A DNA stretch of 64,000 nucleotides from Minisyncoccota bacterium (GTDB lineage: Bacteria; Patescibacteriota; Minisyncoccia; Phycocordibacterales; DATDWN01). Below, one piece after another: positions 1,205 to 7,425 of the stretch. The notes under the pieces were generated by a model. It was given only the letters and a program-made list of their open reading frames with translations. It did not search any database and was not told where the DNA came from. The stretch lies in contig JBAYWK010000001.1 of NCBI GenBank assembly GCA_041674105.1, positions 82,190 to 146,189 of the forward strand, given 5' to 3'. The translations under genes and the position numbers were made by a program. The stretch's first letter is position 1. Each line of letters starts with the position of its first letter.

Positions 1205-1286
1205 TTTAATTTTCAAAACAAAAACCACATTGTTCGTGGTATGAAGATACCCCAGACAAAAATGTATAAGAGACTAAAACTCTTAT

Positions 1287-1315
1287 GTGAGCCTTATACT
1301 ACACAAAACAGTATT
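1287..1315 (-). promoter_or_regulatory. sigma70-like promoter for rpsS-rplV-rpsC (TTGACA-17-TAGTAT).
   Basis: The minus-strand sequence reads ggTTTGACAttaaatactgttttgtgTAGTATaag, about 85 nt upstream of the rpsS ATG. Confidence 0.5.
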
Positions 1316-1379
1316 TAATGTCAAACCTTTTTTGGTCACTATTCTGACTATCTTATTCCAGCTAAAATAGACAAAAAAA

Positions 1380-1620
1380 GGCCCTACTGCATTGGTTACG
1401 CAATAGGTGCCTTATACCCATACTTTGACATCCGAGGGTTTTACGGACAACTCCGGAGCCTTGACCAGAGATTGACGCTTTTGGATCATTCACATCATAC
1501 TTTTCCCTCCTTTCTTGGAAAAATATTCGCCGGCCACCAGGCCGGTGTAGTCGCCGCCCAGTGCATTAGCGCTCGCGCAATGAAGCCAAGTATTCCCTGT
1601 ATTCTTCCATCGTCTTAAAA
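1380..1620. ncRNA. GC-rich island of about 55% GC inside the 600-bp gap of the S10 operon. It is a candidate structured RNA or leader of unknown class.
   Basis: GC content rises sharply against the 33% background and there are several local hairpins, for example ccctactgcattggttacgcaataggtgcc. No ORF of 60 aa or more is present and no match to RNase P, tmRNA or SRP motifs was recognisable by eye. Confidence 0.3.
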
Positions 1621-1824
1621 TAAAAAACTTGACCCGAAATAACTACCGTCATCTTCTTGTCCTTTCCTGGCAGTCTCCTTTGTTCCTTATTTAGGAGACC
1701 ATTCTACATATACCTTAGCATATTCTTACAAAATTGTCAAATAAATTGTATAAAAATAATTAAAATATACCTGAGTAGAGCCATATTCTAATAAAAACCA
1801 CCCCCTATAGAGTGATTTTTTGTT

Positions 1825-2325
1825 TTACAATCCCCTTTCTTTTCTCCTAGCCCTTAAAGTTCTGTGATCTTCTTCTATTTGATCTCGTATTTCCTCCCAA
1901 GAATCAACTTCATATTTTATTGTATTTTCTTGAGATACTTTCAAATCTTCATTTGTTAAATCATACTGTTCCCATTCATTAGTTTCAGGGTTTAAAGCTT
2001 TTATCCAAGCATGATCAACAGAGTCCAGAGTCTCACCATGTATAAGTTTAACTTTAAAACCCAAAAGACGAAGTGCTTCTGCTGAGATATTTACAATCGC
2101 ACCACAACTTTTCATTCCTTTCTTATATACTTCTTCTGCCGAAGTAAATCTTGATTCTATTATACTTTTTGGCTGGTAAGTAGATGAAAGTGATTTCATG
2201 CGACTGTTTACGCCTTCTTGTATAGCCAACATAATATCCGGCAAGCTTTTATACTTTTCACTTATTTCAGTAGCTAATTCACTTACTGATTCCGGAATAT
2301 ATTTCTCTTCTTTAAACTTTTCCAT
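1825..2325 (-). CDS. Transglutaminase-like (papain-fold) cysteine peptidase domain protein.
   Basis: Cys-His-Asp elements are present: GMKSCGAIVNISAEALRLLGFKV ... DHAWIKA ... QYD. This is typical of the transglutaminase-like superfamily. Confidence 0.5.
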   Translation of the reverse strand: MEKFKEEKYIPESVSELATEISEKYKSLPDIMLAIQEGVNSRMKSLSSTYQPKSIIESRFTSAEEVYKKGMKSCGAIVNISAEALRLLGFKVKLIHGETLDSVDHAWIKALNPETNEWEQYDLTNEDLKVSQENTIKYEVDSWEEIRDQIEEDHRTLRARRKERGL

Positions 2326-2329
2326 ATTT

Positions 2330-2737
2330 TTATCCTTGTTTTATTAATTCAACCAATTTCTCTCTTGCTTCTTCAACAGTTTTCACTACATTTCCAGCTT
2401 TTTTAATAAACTCAATAGACCACTTTGGATTTCTTTCCTCTTTCCAAATTATTATAAGTTTATTACAAGTATCACCTGGATTATTGGTGTTATTTGCCAA
2501 AAAATACCCAATTTCTACCCATGTGGCTTCTGAAGGTGCAACACCAGGATTTGCCACCAAATACTCGCAATCTTTAACAGCTTTCAAATCATCAGGGAAA
2601 AAAGTATCCGGTGAGGCCTGATCAGAATCAAATTCCCAATCATAAATATCACATCCTGGAATATTTTTAAAATTTTCTTTCCAGTTATTTTCATATTCAT
2701 TAGGCTGACCAGCTAGATAAATTTTTATTTTTTCCAT
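2330..2737 (-). CDS. Nucleoside 2-deoxyribosyltransferase-like protein, probably nucleoside salvage.
   Basis: N-terminal KIYLAG and the motif SEATWVEIGYFLA match the IYLAGP / DsGTafELGyA signatures of the NDT family. Confidence 0.55.
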   Translation of the reverse strand: MEKIKIYLAGQPNEYENNWKENFKNIPGCDIYDWEFDSDQASPDTFFPDDLKAVKDCEYLVANPGVAPSEATWVEIGYFLANNTNNPGDTCNKLIIIWKEERNPKWSIEFIKKAGNVVKTVEEAREKLVELIKQG

Positions 2738-2748
2738 ATTATTCTAAT

Positions 2749-3345
2749 TTATTCCTTAGATTTAAGATATACAGTTAAATATTTTTCTTCTAAATTATTT
2801 TTTAATCTTGTTCCTAATGTATCTTTACCTGTTCTAAAGTGTTTACCGTCCTCAACATGAGCTCCACCAACAATAACAAAATATTTGCCCGGATTTTCCT
2901 GATAGTAATTATTAATATTATCAGACATATCCTCGTCCCGTGACTCACCTCTTAAAAAATAATAGCCGTGTTCAGATTTGGTTTTATACTCATCTATAGC
3001 AACCTTAGAAGAATCGATGCAAATAACCGGTTTGCCCAATTCTTTTAGCTTATCTAACATTTTCAAAATACCCCTTATATCTTTACTTTCTTTCTGTGCT
3101 CCCAAAAAATACCTTTCTAGACTTTGATCAATCTCTCCTTTTTCCATATACAAATCTACAGAAGATTGATAGCTTACAGACAATTCTAAAAATAAACCTC
3201 TTATTTGATCTGAATGTTTATCTAAAACACAAATGATTTCTTCATCATGAGTGCCGTGAAAGTTTTCAGCCAAAACAACAATATCTGCTTTTTCAAAATA
3301 ATTTTCTAAAACCTGCTCTTGTTCTATTTTTGGAATTTGTTCCAT
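2749..3345 (-). CDS. EreA/ChaN/Tiki-superfamily-like protein.
   Basis: Two GxxH-type motifs (VVLAENFHGTHDEE and VIVGGAHVEDG) are spaced as in the Tiki/TraB/ChaN fold. The assignment is tentative. Confidence 0.4.
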   Translation of the reverse strand: MEQIPKIEQEQVLENYFEKADIVVLAENFHGTHDEEIICVLDKHSDQIRGLFLELSVSYQSSVDLYMEKGEIDQSLERYFLGAQKESKDIRGILKMLDKLKELGKPVICIDSSKVAIDEYKTKSEHGYYFLRGESRDEDMSDNINNYYQENPGKYFVIVGGAHVEDGKHFRTGKDTLGTRLKNNLEEKYLTVYLKSKE

Positions 3346-3348
3346 AAA

Positions 3349-4014
3349 TTACGGTTTAGATATTTCTATAATAATTTTATTAATATCTGGGAAATACTTT
3401 TCAAATATCTCTGATACTTTTTCTGAATTTTCCGGATCTCTCTGAATCCTCTTACTTTCAGGGAAAAATTTATCGATAATTAAATCCACCAACCTTTCCT
3501 TTACCCAATGTGTTATTTTATACTCTTTTATTAGAGGCTCAATGGTTAAATGTACAATCTCATGGGCTAGAGTAATAGTAAGTACTCTTTTTTGTTCAAT
3601 ATTAAGTTGAACATTATTTGGTAACCCATAACTACCCCCTGTTCCATATTTTGTAACACATACAAAATATTTATCTTGTAGTGGAAGATTTAGTGTTTTT
3701 AAACTTTCAAAAAATTTATCTTTTATTTCATCCCACTCTTTTATTATCAAATCCACTTCTTCTCTATATTTTTCTTGATCAAATTCAGCAGAAACTGCTT
3801 CTAAAATATCTTCCTTTTTTACCTTCTCATCTTTTTCTAATCTTTCTTGTATCAATTTAGGATACTTGGGCTTATAACCATTTTCCTTATACCAATGGTA
3901 TTTTTTAAGTGTACTAAAAACCCTTTCTTTTTCATCTTCTACAGAATAATCAAAAACAACCTCTATTTTTGGTTCAGCTTCTTTGTTATCTTGATTTTCT
4001 ATTAGCTTTTCCAT
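3349..4014 (-). CDS. Hypothetical protein with an HExxH zinc-metallopeptidase-like motif.
   Basis: The ORF is 221 aa and contains TITLAHEIVHLT. No wider family was recognised. Confidence 0.35.
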   Translation of the reverse strand: MEKLIENQDNKEAEPKIEVVFDYSVEDEKERVFSTLKKYHWYKENGYKPKYPKLIQERLEKDEKVKKEDILEAVSAEFDQEKYREEVDLIIKEWDEIKDKFFESLKTLNLPLQDKYFVCVTKYGTGGSYGLPNNVQLNIEQKRVLTITLAHEIVHLTIEPLIKEYKITHWVKERLVDLIIDKFFPESKRIQRDPENSEKVSEIFEKYFPDINKIIIEISKP

Positions 4015-4060
4015 ACATCTAGATTATACCAAAAACAAAACCCCTTGTGGGGGCTTTGTT

Positions 4061-4903
4061 TTATTTTCTCTTACCAACTTTTCTTCTAGAAACGATAAGT
4101 CTGTTTGAATATTTTTTAGGAGTTCTTGTCTTCTGTCCTTTTCCTGTAGGTCGTCCCCATTTAGAAACAGCTCTCCTTCTTCCTCTTCCTTGTCTACCCT
4201 CTCCTCCTCCGTGTGGGTGGTCTACTGGGTTTTGAGCAGTACCTCTAACTGTAGGTCTAATACCTAACCATCTTGATCTTCCGGCCTTTCCAAGATTTAC
4301 AAGCCTGTTTTCATCATTAGAAACTTCTCCGACTGAAGCCCATGCAGTTTCTTTAACCTTTCTGATTTCTGAAGATGGAAGTTTCAGATCAACAAGCCCG
4401 GCATCTTTTGCTACAACCTCTACGAAATTACCAGCTGACCTAGCAAGTTTTGCTCCACCTTTTGGTTTGATCTCTACATTGTAAACAAACGTACCTACTG
4501 TGATATTTTTCAAAGGAAGTCTATTTCCAGCTTTTACTTCAGCTGTTTCTGAGTTTACAAGTTTGTCTCCAACTGAAACACCTTTTGGTAAAAGAACATA
4601 TCTCTTTTCACCATCTCTGTACTGGGCAAGTCCGATGAAACCAGATCTGTTCGGGTCATACTCTACTGATTTTATAGTATAAGGAATATCAATTTTATTA
4701 TATTTAAAATCTACTTCTCTATAAAGTCTTTTGTGTCCACCTCCTTTATGTCTAGTAGTAAGTTTACCAGCATTATTTCTACCAACAGATCTTTTATAAC
4801 CCTTTGTTAGAGATTTTTCTGGTTTGGATTTTGTAAGTAAGCTACTATATCCTATAGTAGTCATATTTCTTCTTGATGGACTTGTTGGTTTATATCTTTT
4901 CAT
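4061..4903 (-). CDS. rplB: 50S ribosomal protein L2.
   Basis: The protein is strongly conserved with L2 (…RNNAGKLTTRHKGGGHKR…, GGGEGR…). Confidence 0.95.
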   Translation of the reverse strand: MKRYKPTSPSRRNMTTIGYSSLLTKSKPEKSLTKGYKRSVGRNNAGKLTTRHKGGGHKRLYREVDFKYNKIDIPYTIKSVEYDPNRSGFIGLAQYRDGEKRYVLLPKGVSVGDKLVNSETAEVKAGNRLPLKNITVGTFVYNVEIKPKGGAKLARSAGNFVEVVAKDAGLVDLKLPSSEIRKVKETAWASVGEVSNDENRLVNLGKAGRSRWLGIRPTVRGTAQNPVDHPHGGGEGRQGRGRRRAVSKWGRPTGKGQKTRTPKKYSNRLIVSRRKVGKRK

Positions 4904-6555: not shown

Positions 6556-6865
6556 AAAAATCTAAGTGACGATTTGCGGACAGTAATGAGAAAGGTATCC
6601 TCAACATTGCCCTTCGCTAGTCACCAAAAAAACTTTTTTGACGATTTGGCTATACTATCAGATATCCTTTTTTAAATCAAGTGGCTATATATACTTACTA
6701 TATAGTTATATAATTAAAAACAACTTTCCGAAGAAAGTTGGTTTATGTGGTGTCAGATGCAAGCATCTGATGAAAGAACAGTTGTAGAAATGTTAGTTTT
6801 AAGTTGTGGAGAGAAGTGACCTAGGTCTCTTCTCAAGAACTCATTACCTTTATTACTACATTTAG

Positions 6866-6896
6866 AGTATAATCCTCTCGGCTTTTATTGTCAAAC
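6866..6896 (-). promoter_or_regulatory. sigma70-like promoter (TTGACA-17-TATACT) that launches a 300-nt structured leader into rplC.
   Basis: The minus strand reads gtgtTTGACAataaaagccgagaggatTATACTctaaatg. The leader from 6556 to 6860 contains several hairpins, for example caactttccgaagaaagttg. Confidence 0.45.
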
Positions 6897-6925
6897 ACTA
6901 ACCTGTGGATAACTTAATATAGCAA

Positions 6926-6953
6926 AAAACTGCCACTGGCAGTTTTTTGAAAG
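6926..6953 (-). terminator. Intrinsic terminator after the 92-aa ORF; it is bidirectional.
   Basis: aaaaaactgccactggcagttttttg is a perfect stem flanked by A and T runs. Confidence 0.6.
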
Positions 6954-6958
6954 AACAA

Positions 6959-7237
6959 TCAATCTGTTTTTACTACATAATAAGTATACTTATCTTTCCA
7001 AATTCTAGCAGATTCTTCGACTACTGGTTTAGCCTCAGGATTTAAAGATGTGACACAATTAACCCACTCCTCCGATGTAGTAATGCCTACCACAATAGCC
7101 CTTTGATCTGGAAATACTCTCTCAAAATGATCCGTGATTCCTTTTATTACCTCCCCTACTTGATGTCTAGGATTCCAAGTTATCTGGTCTCCTGTTTCGT
7201 CTTTAGTATTCCAAGATGCAATAACCAACTGTGACAT
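6959..7237 (-). CDS. Hypothetical 92-aa protein inserted between rpsJ and rplC.
   Basis: The ORF is bracketed by two strong hairpin terminators. No family was recognised. Confidence 0.45.
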   Translation of the reverse strand: MSQLVIASWNTKDETGDQITWNPRHQVGEVIKGITDHFERVFPDQRAIVVGITTSEEWVNCVTSLNPEAKPVVEESARIWKDKYTYYVVKTD

Positions 7238-7264
7238 AAAACCTCCTCAAGAGATACTACCACC

Positions 7265-7304
7265 TACAAATACAAAAACCACCCGAAGGTGGTTTTTGTA
7301 TTTG
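7265..7304 (-). terminator. Intrinsic terminator downstream of rpsJ and repeat A1.
   Basis: acaaatacaaaaaccacccgaaggtggtttttgtatttgt has a GC stem ccacc/ggtgg followed by a T-run on the minus strand. Confidence 0.65.
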
Positions 7305-7305
7305 T

Positions 7306-7380
7306 AAGGATTTTTGTTTGAGTTCAAGGCGCCAAGTTTTGTTTTTGACCAAGGTGTATAAAAATACTCCGCGGGAGAAA
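7306..7380. repeat. Repeat family A, copy 1, lying 3' of rpsJ.
   Basis: It shares ttcaaggcNcNaagttttgttt and a 30-nt identical core gaccaaggtgtataaaaatactccgcggga with copy 2 at 15774..15868. Confidence 0.7.
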
Positions 7381-7425
7381 ACAAAACAAGCAACGCAGAA
7401 ATCGAACAAAAAGACTACAAATAAA

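Follow-up and report, generated by a model that had tools for sequence, protein, structure and literature searches.

Why should four genes for enzyme-like proteins and a long gap sit between the ribosomal protein genes rplB and rpsS? The S10-spc gene string to which these two genes belong is a textbook case of frozen gene order, and it serves as a syntenic block for placing CPR (Candidate Phyla Radiation)/Patescibacteria genomes in phylogenies. We addressed this question in a 64,000-nt stretch of DNA from a Minisyncoccota bacterium (GenBank assembly GCA_041674105.1, contig JBAYWK010000001.1, positions 82,190 to 146,189 of the forward strand), in which a preliminary description had reported such an insertion. 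We call the whole stretch the window and count coordinates from its first letter. The answer that we consider probable is that the rplB-rpsS junction is a clade-wide operon boundary acting as a hypervariable cargo slot.

Along the minus strand, the genes run tuf, rpsJ, a gap with a 92-amino-acid open reading frame (ORF), rplC, rplD, rplW, rplB, the four cargo genes g1–g4, a gap, rpsS, and rplV. The parts of the junction are as follows:

4061–4903, minus strand: rplB (L2), which closes the upstream unit rplC-rplD-rplW-rplB
3349–4014, minus strand: g1, 221 amino acids
2749–3345, minus strand: g2, 198 amino acids
2330–2737, minus strand: g3, 135 amino acids
1825–2325, minus strand: g4, 166 amino acids
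866–1204, minus strand: rpsS (S19), which opens the downstream unit rpsS-rplV-...

This ORF layout confirms the four nonribosomal genes and the long gap that had been reported. The four genes are co-directional and only 3, 11, and 4 nt apart (g1/g2, g2/g3, and g3/g4, respectively), and they are therefore packed in an operon-like manner; the GC content of the cargo is 31%, compared with 36–37% in the flanks. Between g4 and rpsS there is no ORF longer than 48 amino acids. The most likely start of rpsS, as judged from its agreement with all homologs, is ATG 1204, so the noncoding stretch spans 1205–1824 (∼620 bp). The 596-bp gap of the preliminary description thus holds as a long ORF-free segment but not in its size, which had been counted from a GTG at 1228. 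We rejected that GTG as the rpsS start: it belongs to a conserved hairpin of the leader, whose 3′ arm it forms, and all homologs fit ATG 1204.

How unusual is a wide rplB-rpsS junction? A search with RplB, limited to the 80 best matches at one genome per species, returned 80 species-level genomes, all of them Patescibacteria (of the Paceibacteria/Zambryskibacteria-Taylorbacteria-Nomurabacteria type), with RplB 67–90% identical to that of the window. Spacers were measured between tblastn end-points in the 68 genomes that have both rplB and rpsS on the locus. They range from 52 to 7561 bp, with a median of ∼850 bp; 56 of the 68 exceed 200 bp, and just one is shorter than 60 bp. At the control junctions rplC-rplD, rplD-rplW, rplW-rplB, and rpsS-rplV, spacers of more than 200 bp occur in zero or one genome each. 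Weaker second hot spots are the rpsJ-rplC spacer (>200 nt in 26/74) and the tuf-rpsJ spacer (20/73). The expected width of a few bases therefore does not apply in this clade, in which the spacer is at least 52 bp in all 68 genomes; a wide junction is unusual among bacteria in general, not within the clade.

What fills the junction in other genomes? None of the 80 relatives carries a homolog of g1–g4 there. Clustering of six window proteins with the 162 junction ORFs that reach 45 amino acids or more left 116 of the 168 proteins without a match to any other. Pfam matches among the 106 junction ORFs of at least 100 amino acids include rplJ/rplL (six genomes), MscS-like, TruD, diacylglycerol kinase (DAGK), TatC, patatin, MazF, and MerR. 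In those six relatives (L035, L051, L055, L056, L060, and L076), rplJ-rplL (L10 and L7/L12) lie with MscS-like and other genes between rplB and rpsS, at ∼9.5–12.5 kb in each locus; another ribosomal operon has thus moved into the slot.

Variation extends to near-identical strains. Exact-protein look-ups yielded three further assemblies (L087, L088, and L089) from separate sequencing runs (SRR16642443, SRR27197515, and SRR15237805), whose ribosomal proteins are 97–99% identical to those of the window. Their cargo proteins are 73–91% identical, and the spacer DNA is homologous. The order in L087 is rplB, a different nucleoside 2-deoxyribosyltransferase (NDT)-like gene (117 amino acids), g4 (73% identical), the homologous gap, and rpsS; L088 has the same arrangement minus a small-ORF module in the gap, which is also absent from L089. 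The order in L089 is g2 (76%), g3 (91%), g4 (75%), an extra ORF of 126–138 amino acids, the 3′ part of the gap, and rpsS. In L087 and L088, the junction contains neither g1 nor g2.

Is the junction also a boundary of transcription? Four predicted signals bear on this question:

4031–4060, minus strand: intrinsic, bidirectional-type terminator directly 3′ of rplB (AAACAAAGCCCC-CACAA-GGGGTTTTGTTTTT), flagged on the plus strand too
4023–4031, minus strand: candidate cargo promoter, an extended −10-like TGgTATAAT, 8 nt upstream of the g1 ATG
1793–1816, minus strand: terminator-like hairpin and T-run 3′ of g4 (ATCACTC-TATAGG-GGGTGGT-TTTT)
1296–1324, minus strand: P3, the rpsS promoter, TTGACA-17-TAGTAT (10/12 match)

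The hairpin after rplB recurs in L087 and L088 with a compensatory change, and hairpins composed of an A-tract, a GC stem, and a T-tract lie within 90 nt 3′ of rplB in 45 of 68 relatives, with quite different stems. The hairpin after g4 is likewise kept in L087, L088, and the relative L001, again with compensatory changes (CTCACC/GGTGAG and CCACCC/GGGTG). A separate promoter for rpsS, as the preliminary description had it, is found at 1324–1296, and it has an equivalent in most relatives: in 66 of 70 loci, the 220 nt ahead of rpsS contain TTGACx-N16-18-TAnnAT, even where the spacer is only 52–170 bp. No Shine-Dalgarno sequence precedes g1. In L087 and L088 the arrangement terminator-TGGTATAAT-6 nt-ATG is kept with a different first cargo gene, which suggests a conserved cargo promoter producing a leaderless mRNA; g1 itself may be leaderless. 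The start regions of rplB, rplC, rplD, rplW, rpsS, rplV, rpsJ, g1, and g2 are mostly A/T-rich upstream, with no recognizable Shine-Dalgarno sequence; the 92-amino-acid ORF and sORF28 (a small ORF in the gap) have one.

If these signals act as predicted, transcription of rplC-rplD-rplW-rplB would stop at the intrinsic terminator directly after rplB, and that of rpsS-rplV-... would restart at its own consensus sigma-70-type promoter and run through a structured leader. Both flanks would be transcriptionally self-sufficient, so the gain, loss, or swap of DNA between them would spare ribosomal protein expression, and such harmless exchange would make the junction a clade-wide hypervariable cargo slot. 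In the window, the slot would hold three things: a compact operon of four small cytoplasmic enzymes from unrelated superfamilies, probably with its own extended −10 promoter and its own terminator; a gene for a 28-amino-acid protein with a separate promoter and terminator; and a ∼100-nt conserved noncoding element with a terminator. The cargo looks like a separate transcription unit because of the terminators after rplB and g4 and the promoter that rpsS has of its own, and it is probably not cotranscribed with either rplB or rpsS. The same signals speak against the earlier view that the genes had been inserted into an operon expressed more highly than any other.

Several points weigh against a cargo slot at an operon boundary. 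The terminators and promoters are sequence predictions, and the rplB terminator might be leaky, with partial cotranscription as the result. The survey covers the 80 best RplB matches at one genome per species, with distances taken from tblastn end-points. An NDT-like gene adjoins g4 both in L087 and in the window, though the two NDT-like proteins are just ∼19% identical, which hints at this pair as the sole candidate for a functional link within the cargo. Finally, g1 homologs lie beside other breaks in the ribosomal cluster in two of the three relatives examined, and this may not be coincidence.

How might the downstream half of the split operon be controlled? Between P3 and the rpsS start codon lies a structured leader:

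1205–1295, minus strand: rpsS 5′ leader, consisting of hp1, a conserved U-rich linker, hp2, and hp3 followed by UUUUGUUUUG
1286–1266, minus strand: hp1, a leader helix that covaries
1251–1238, minus strand: hp2 (GGTAT/ATACC), a conserved leader helix that overlaps the 5′ arm of hp3
1240–1224, minus strand: hp3 (ACCAC-N7-GTGGT), which covaries and is followed by UUUUGUUUUG at 1223–1214

Of 67 leaders, 59 carry a hairpin followed by a U-tract in the interval from the −10 box to the rpsS ATG, compared with 3.4% of shuffled leaders. In the same 67-leader survey, the first hairpin begins a median of 9 nt past the −10 box and therefore lies at the extreme 5′ end of the predicted mRNA. In a MAFFT-based alignment of 24 leaders (A7), hp1 and hp3 together show double changes in 8 of 11 pairs, and 88.6% of cells are paired. 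These values were reached in 0 of 500 shuffles, a count that is not a probability since the sequences are related, and slid controls were 33–56% paired. The hp2 helix, a potential antiterminator, is 86% paired and missing in four sequences, and it shows no covariation in the 24-leader alignment. RNAalifold on the MAFFT alignment recovered hp3 alone. A covariance model of the leader (R1) gave one match per locus in 29 loci, always upstream of rpsS and nowhere else in 1.37 Mb. An Rfam cmscan of 1200–1900 with E up to 10 returned only noise, and the leader matches no described family.

A more far-reaching reading builds on these observations, and we regard it as tentative, with the odds leaning clearly against it: Paceibacteria would have divided the most conserved bacterial operon for good at rplB/rpsS, with the downstream half under a new, possibly autogenous attenuator leader, and the slot would express lineage-specific genes, the new 28-amino-acid microprotein, and a lineage-specific small RNA from element C, the noncoding element in the gap, beside the ribosomal genes. 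The leader would consist of the promoter and a 5′-terminal hairpin with a U-tract; in the subclade of the window, a second covarying terminator-like hairpin would compete with the conserved GGUAU/AUACC helix. The idea that hp2 and hp3 form such a terminator/antiterminator switch is speculative, because hp2 does not covary and four sequences lack it. The leader may be a ribosomal protein leader not previously described. It is equally open that it acts as a 5′ stabilizing stem-loop or as a terminator for read-through from the upstream unit, because the first hairpin begins ∼2 nt past the predicted transcript start.

The closest functional analog of the rpsS leader is the E. coli S10 leader, in which L4 stimulates termination at a hairpin ahead of rpsJ and control combines attenuation with translational repression (PMC3616713). 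Both are structured 5′ leaders of multigene operons, with a hairpin and U-tract lying just ahead of the first start codon and, farther upstream, a hairpin that varies. Unlike the S10 leader, the rpsS leader precedes rpsS rather than rpsJ and has a short stem (5 bp), and the two share no sequence or Rfam similarity. In the literature we found no description of an rplB/rpsS split or of ribosomal protein leaders in Patescibacteria. If the split is real and fixed, the rpsS leader would be a candidate for keeping ribosomal protein stoichiometry despite the divided operon, in a phylum without described ribosomal protein leaders.

Does the GC-rich part of the gap encode one structured RNA? The GC content of 1380–1620 is 49.4%; this falls short of the 55% given earlier, yet it is extreme against the window mean of 34%, being reached by 0.08% of 240-nt windows. 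The gap proves to be modular, and its modules occur independently of one another in relatives:

1712–1740, minus strand: P1, promoter-like TTGACA-17-TAAGGT for the small ORF, kept in L087, L088, and L001 (TTGACA-17-TAGGAT/TAAGAT)
1673–1699, minus strand: hairpin in the 5′ untranslated region of the small ORF (GTCTCCT...AGGAGAC), with a compensatory GATCTCC...GGGGATC in L001
1566–1652, minus strand: sORF28 (MTVVISGQVFYFKTMEEYREYLASLRER), a putative unannotated gene for a 28-amino-acid protein
1530–1545, minus strand: GC-rich terminator hairpin 3′ of sORF28, CCGGCCTGGTGGCCGG then CGAATATTTT, the core of the GC island
1499–1494, minus strand: possible −10 box TATGAT upstream of element C
1376–1478, minus strand: element C, a ∼100-nt noncoding block with an intrinsic terminator at its end (hairpin 1407–1383 and T-run)
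between element C and P3, minus strand: poorly conserved spacer

The frame and stop codon of sORF28 are kept in L087 (33 amino acids) and L001 (31 amino acids) at just 56–63% nucleotide identity. Synonymous divergence (pS 0.73–0.82) far exceeds nonsynonymous divergence (pN 0.28–0.36), as under purifying selection. The conserved frame and stop and the excess of pS over pN thus indicate that sORF28 is a real but unannotated protein gene. It is missing from the protein collection, and a profile search of 94 loci added no copy to the three of the family (window 1566–1652, L087 8681–8782, and L001 9559–9654). The family weakly resembles the YHS domain (Pfam, E 0.08 for the L087 copy), with cysteine positions that are not conserved. 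The equivalent in L087 of the terminator hairpin after sORF28 is CCGGCCCGATGGCTGG.

In element C, only two to three substitutions separate the window and the strains L087, L088, and L089, and the flanks diverge. Its fold has a z-score of −2.97, mostly due to the terminator, and it contains no conserved ORF; a 43-amino-acid ORF across it (1362–1493) was rejected because its frame is broken in L087. Of element C, L001 and the metagenomic locus L113 share the terminator only, and the element is absent from more distant genomes. Our metagenome scan for the terminator (AAGGCACC-N3-4-GCGTAACCAA) returned 51 loci, which is the chance expectation for 18 specified bases; the sole homologous locus among them was L113, which is L001-like. 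The element is a candidate small RNA, one that occurs in near-identical strains only. Just upstream of it, a strong AAGGAGG Shine-Dalgarno sequence precedes a mini-ORF of two to four codons (window 1494–1525, with equivalents in L087–L089), which reads ATG ATG TGA in the window, ATG ATC TGA in L088, and ATG GCT TGA in L089.

These modules decide how the GC island (∼1380–1620) should be read. That it is a single structured noncoding RNA gene fits its GC content (49% against a background of 34%) and fits element C, which hardly varies among four strains, carries no conserved ORF, ends in a terminator, and folds with the z-score given above. The 5′ third of the island, however, is the 3′ end of a coding small ORF with pS far above pN, and two separate terminators divide the island. 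L088 and L089 lack the sORF part, so the modules are independent; element C is limited to near-identical strains, with only the one L001-like locus added by the metagenome scan; and Rfam gave no match at E up to 10. At the gathering threshold, Rfam found four tRNAs alone in the whole window (43.8–48.5 kb), and ARAGORN found no tRNA or transfer-messenger RNA in the gap. A single RNA gene is accordingly unlikely. The island is a mosaic to which sORF28 contributes its 3′ end, joined by two terminators and by element C; what survives of the structured RNA proposed for it is the conserved ∼100-nt element.

Conservation within this one spacer is very uneven. Between the window and L087, whose ribosomal proteins are 97–98% identical, the sORF28 DNA is 58% identical and the g4 protein 73%; element C, P3, and the rpsS leader are ∼98% identical. 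This unevenness may reflect recombination or allele replacement.

What are the four cargo proteins? Single-sequence searches of Pfam, NCBIfam, and PDB with g1–g4 gave sub-threshold matches alone, and assignment needed family alignments and structure prediction. With these, the family guesses made earlier hold at the superfamily level (zincin HExxH, EreA/ChaN/Tiki, NDT-like, and transglutaminase-like Cys-His-Asp). The four are new members of known superfamilies with ordinary small hydrolase or transferase folds, and inspection revealed no signal peptide in any of them.

The first protein, g1, belongs to an uncurated Paceibacteria family and is predicted to be a zincin-like HExxH metallohydrolase of the gluzincin type. 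Its H151, E152, and H155 (HExxH) are invariant in 46 homologs, as is E173, 18 residues past H155, which is a candidate for the third ligand expected at ∼18–25 residues; the HExxH motif and the predicted zincin fold are what it shares with zincin (gluzincin) metallopeptidases. There is no curated-family match in Pfam, NCBIfam, or PDB, only scattered sub-threshold matches such as DUF5663, M48, and M78, and the family profile matches nothing in PDB.

The EreA/ChaN/Tiki superfamily spans erythromycin esterases, ChaN, Tiki, TraB/PrgY, and the toxin domains PMT-C1, RRSP, and HopBA1. Structure prediction places g2 in it as a minimal single-domain member with the characteristic alpha/beta fold. With its 198 amino acids, g2 reaches about half the length of an erythromycin esterase and falls below every Pfam cut-off (PF04187, 15.1 bits against 27.7; PF05139, 14.1 against 26.4), with homologs reaching E 1.3e-6. 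Its invariant or near-invariant residues are E27, H30-G31, E54, R136, E138, G160, and H163, which are candidates for the His/Glu/Arg catalytic set (paired GxxH-type motifs) of the superfamily. Among the PADLOC defense models, the one marginal match was that of g2 to JetB (E 0.0014), and no credible system emerged.

By its sequence family, g3 is a small NDT-like protein of the NDT/MilB/BlsM superfamily. It has the E-x-G motif in which the catalytic Glu is expected, with E75 and G77 invariant, and its family profile matches the MilB CMP N-glycosidase (4jen) at 2.5e-5, NDTs at 0.2, and BlsM weakly. It departs from that superfamily in scoring below the cut-off: PF05014 gives E 0.011 and 16.3 bits against 28.8, and all tested relatives stay below the PF05014/PF15891 cut-off. 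The family is tiny, with 24 relatives among 1.8 billion representatives. One protein, P0102 (371 amino acids), joins a g3-like NDT domain (52% identical, residues 9–134) to an uncharacterized C-terminal region of ∼235 amino acids with a faint winged-helix hint.

The last, g4, is to judge from its motifs a transglutaminase-like protein with a cysteine peptidase/amidase fold. Its C74, H105, and D122 triad is invariant in 21 sequences, 13 of 20 homologs have a precomputed PF01841 match, and the profile matches PNGase (2f4m) at 0.0018. It resembles PF01841/PNGase in the invariant Cys-His-Asp triad, and it differs in being a minimal stand-alone domain of 166 amino acids, itself scoring 20.6 bits against a cut-off of 23.

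Do the four belong together? The preliminary description saw in them a functional module, perhaps one that processes peptides or scavenges nucleosides, which would have been inserted into the S10 operon for coexpression with ribosomal proteins. The genes are indeed co-directional and 3–11 nt apart, g2-g3-g4 stand together in L089, an NDT-like gene lies beside g4 in L087 and L088, and all four proteins have plausible hydrolase or transferase folds. Beyond near-identical strains, however, g1–g4 are never all together, and the sole recurring adjacency is that of the NDT-like gene and g4, again in the closest strains. Homologs of g1 lie between a trypsin-like protease and ClpB (L081), immediately upstream of rpsN at another ribosomal-cluster break (L083, 8001–8630), and downstream of rplE after several inserted genes, ahead of type IV pilus genes (L085, 8001–8672); the spc operon is thus also fragmented in the latter two genomes. 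Homologs of g2 are found beside TfoX and a sigma factor (L090) and near Fic and trigger factor (L147). A g3 homolog (70% identical) lies between a PD-(D/E)xK protein and RecR, and the g4 homologs in L092–L094 are solitary.

Because distant homologs sit in such unrelated contexts, often alone, there is no conserved four-gene module. None of the four is at the junction in the 80 relatives, g1 and g2 are missing from it in L087 and L088, no known system combines the four families, PADLOC gave no credible match, and the one fusion seen (P0102) pairs the NDT-like domain with an unrelated domain at the C terminus. The terminators after rplB and g4 and the separate rpsS promoter further oppose coexpression with ribosomal proteins. 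We therefore give the coexpressed module a small chance, slightly below that of a single RNA gene in the GC island.

A mobile element, phage remnant, or horizontally acquired island is a more remote explanation still. The content does differ between close strains, and the AT content of the cargo lies slightly above that of its surroundings, but there is no integrase, transposase, flanking direct or inverted repeat, or tRNA at the site, and a tblastn search of g1–g4 against 50,697 phage records gave nothing. The homologs of g1, g2, and g4 that are named or labeled by source are from Patescibacteria; the relatives of g3 carry no taxon labels. An assembly chimera or mis-join in this metagenome-assembled genome, for which nothing speaks save that genes are improbable here a priori, is virtually excluded, because the synteny check finds g2–g4 homologs at the same junction across three independent assemblies of near-identical strains, with the same architecture and homologous spacer, and because a spacer is present at the site in 68 of 68 relatives.

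How does a cargo slot at an operon boundary compare with known changes in ribosomal gene order? It fits a known pattern, since insertions into the ribosomal supercluster elsewhere land in inter-operon regions (PMC8046335). As in those known cases (PMC6735719), unrelated genes lie here between two transcription units and the flanking ribosomal gene order is kept; such insertions tend to precede further rearrangement (PMC6735719). Unlike them, the boundary here separates rplB from rpsS, two genes that in E. coli share a single S10 operon, and it is found in every genome of a class-level clade, with cargo that is hypervariable (0.05–7.5 kb) even between strains.

If a break that is fixed across the class does carry strain-variable cargo, the contiguity of the ribosomal block would be unsafe as a test for assembly or binning errors in these bacteria. 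The rplB-rpsS site would also be a natural place to seek fast-evolving accessory functions of these episymbionts. Potentially new are the rpsS leader, sORF28, and element C.

The rpsJ-rplC junction of the window is interrupted as well (6556–7425). It holds the 92-amino-acid ORF (6959–7237), which has a strong GAGGAGG Shine-Dalgarno sequence and no family match. Terminator-like hairpins flank this ORF at ∼7296–7274 and ∼6947–6924, and a TTGACA-17-TATACT motif lies between it and rplC (6894–6866). Homologs of the ORF occupy the equivalent place in L021 and L031.

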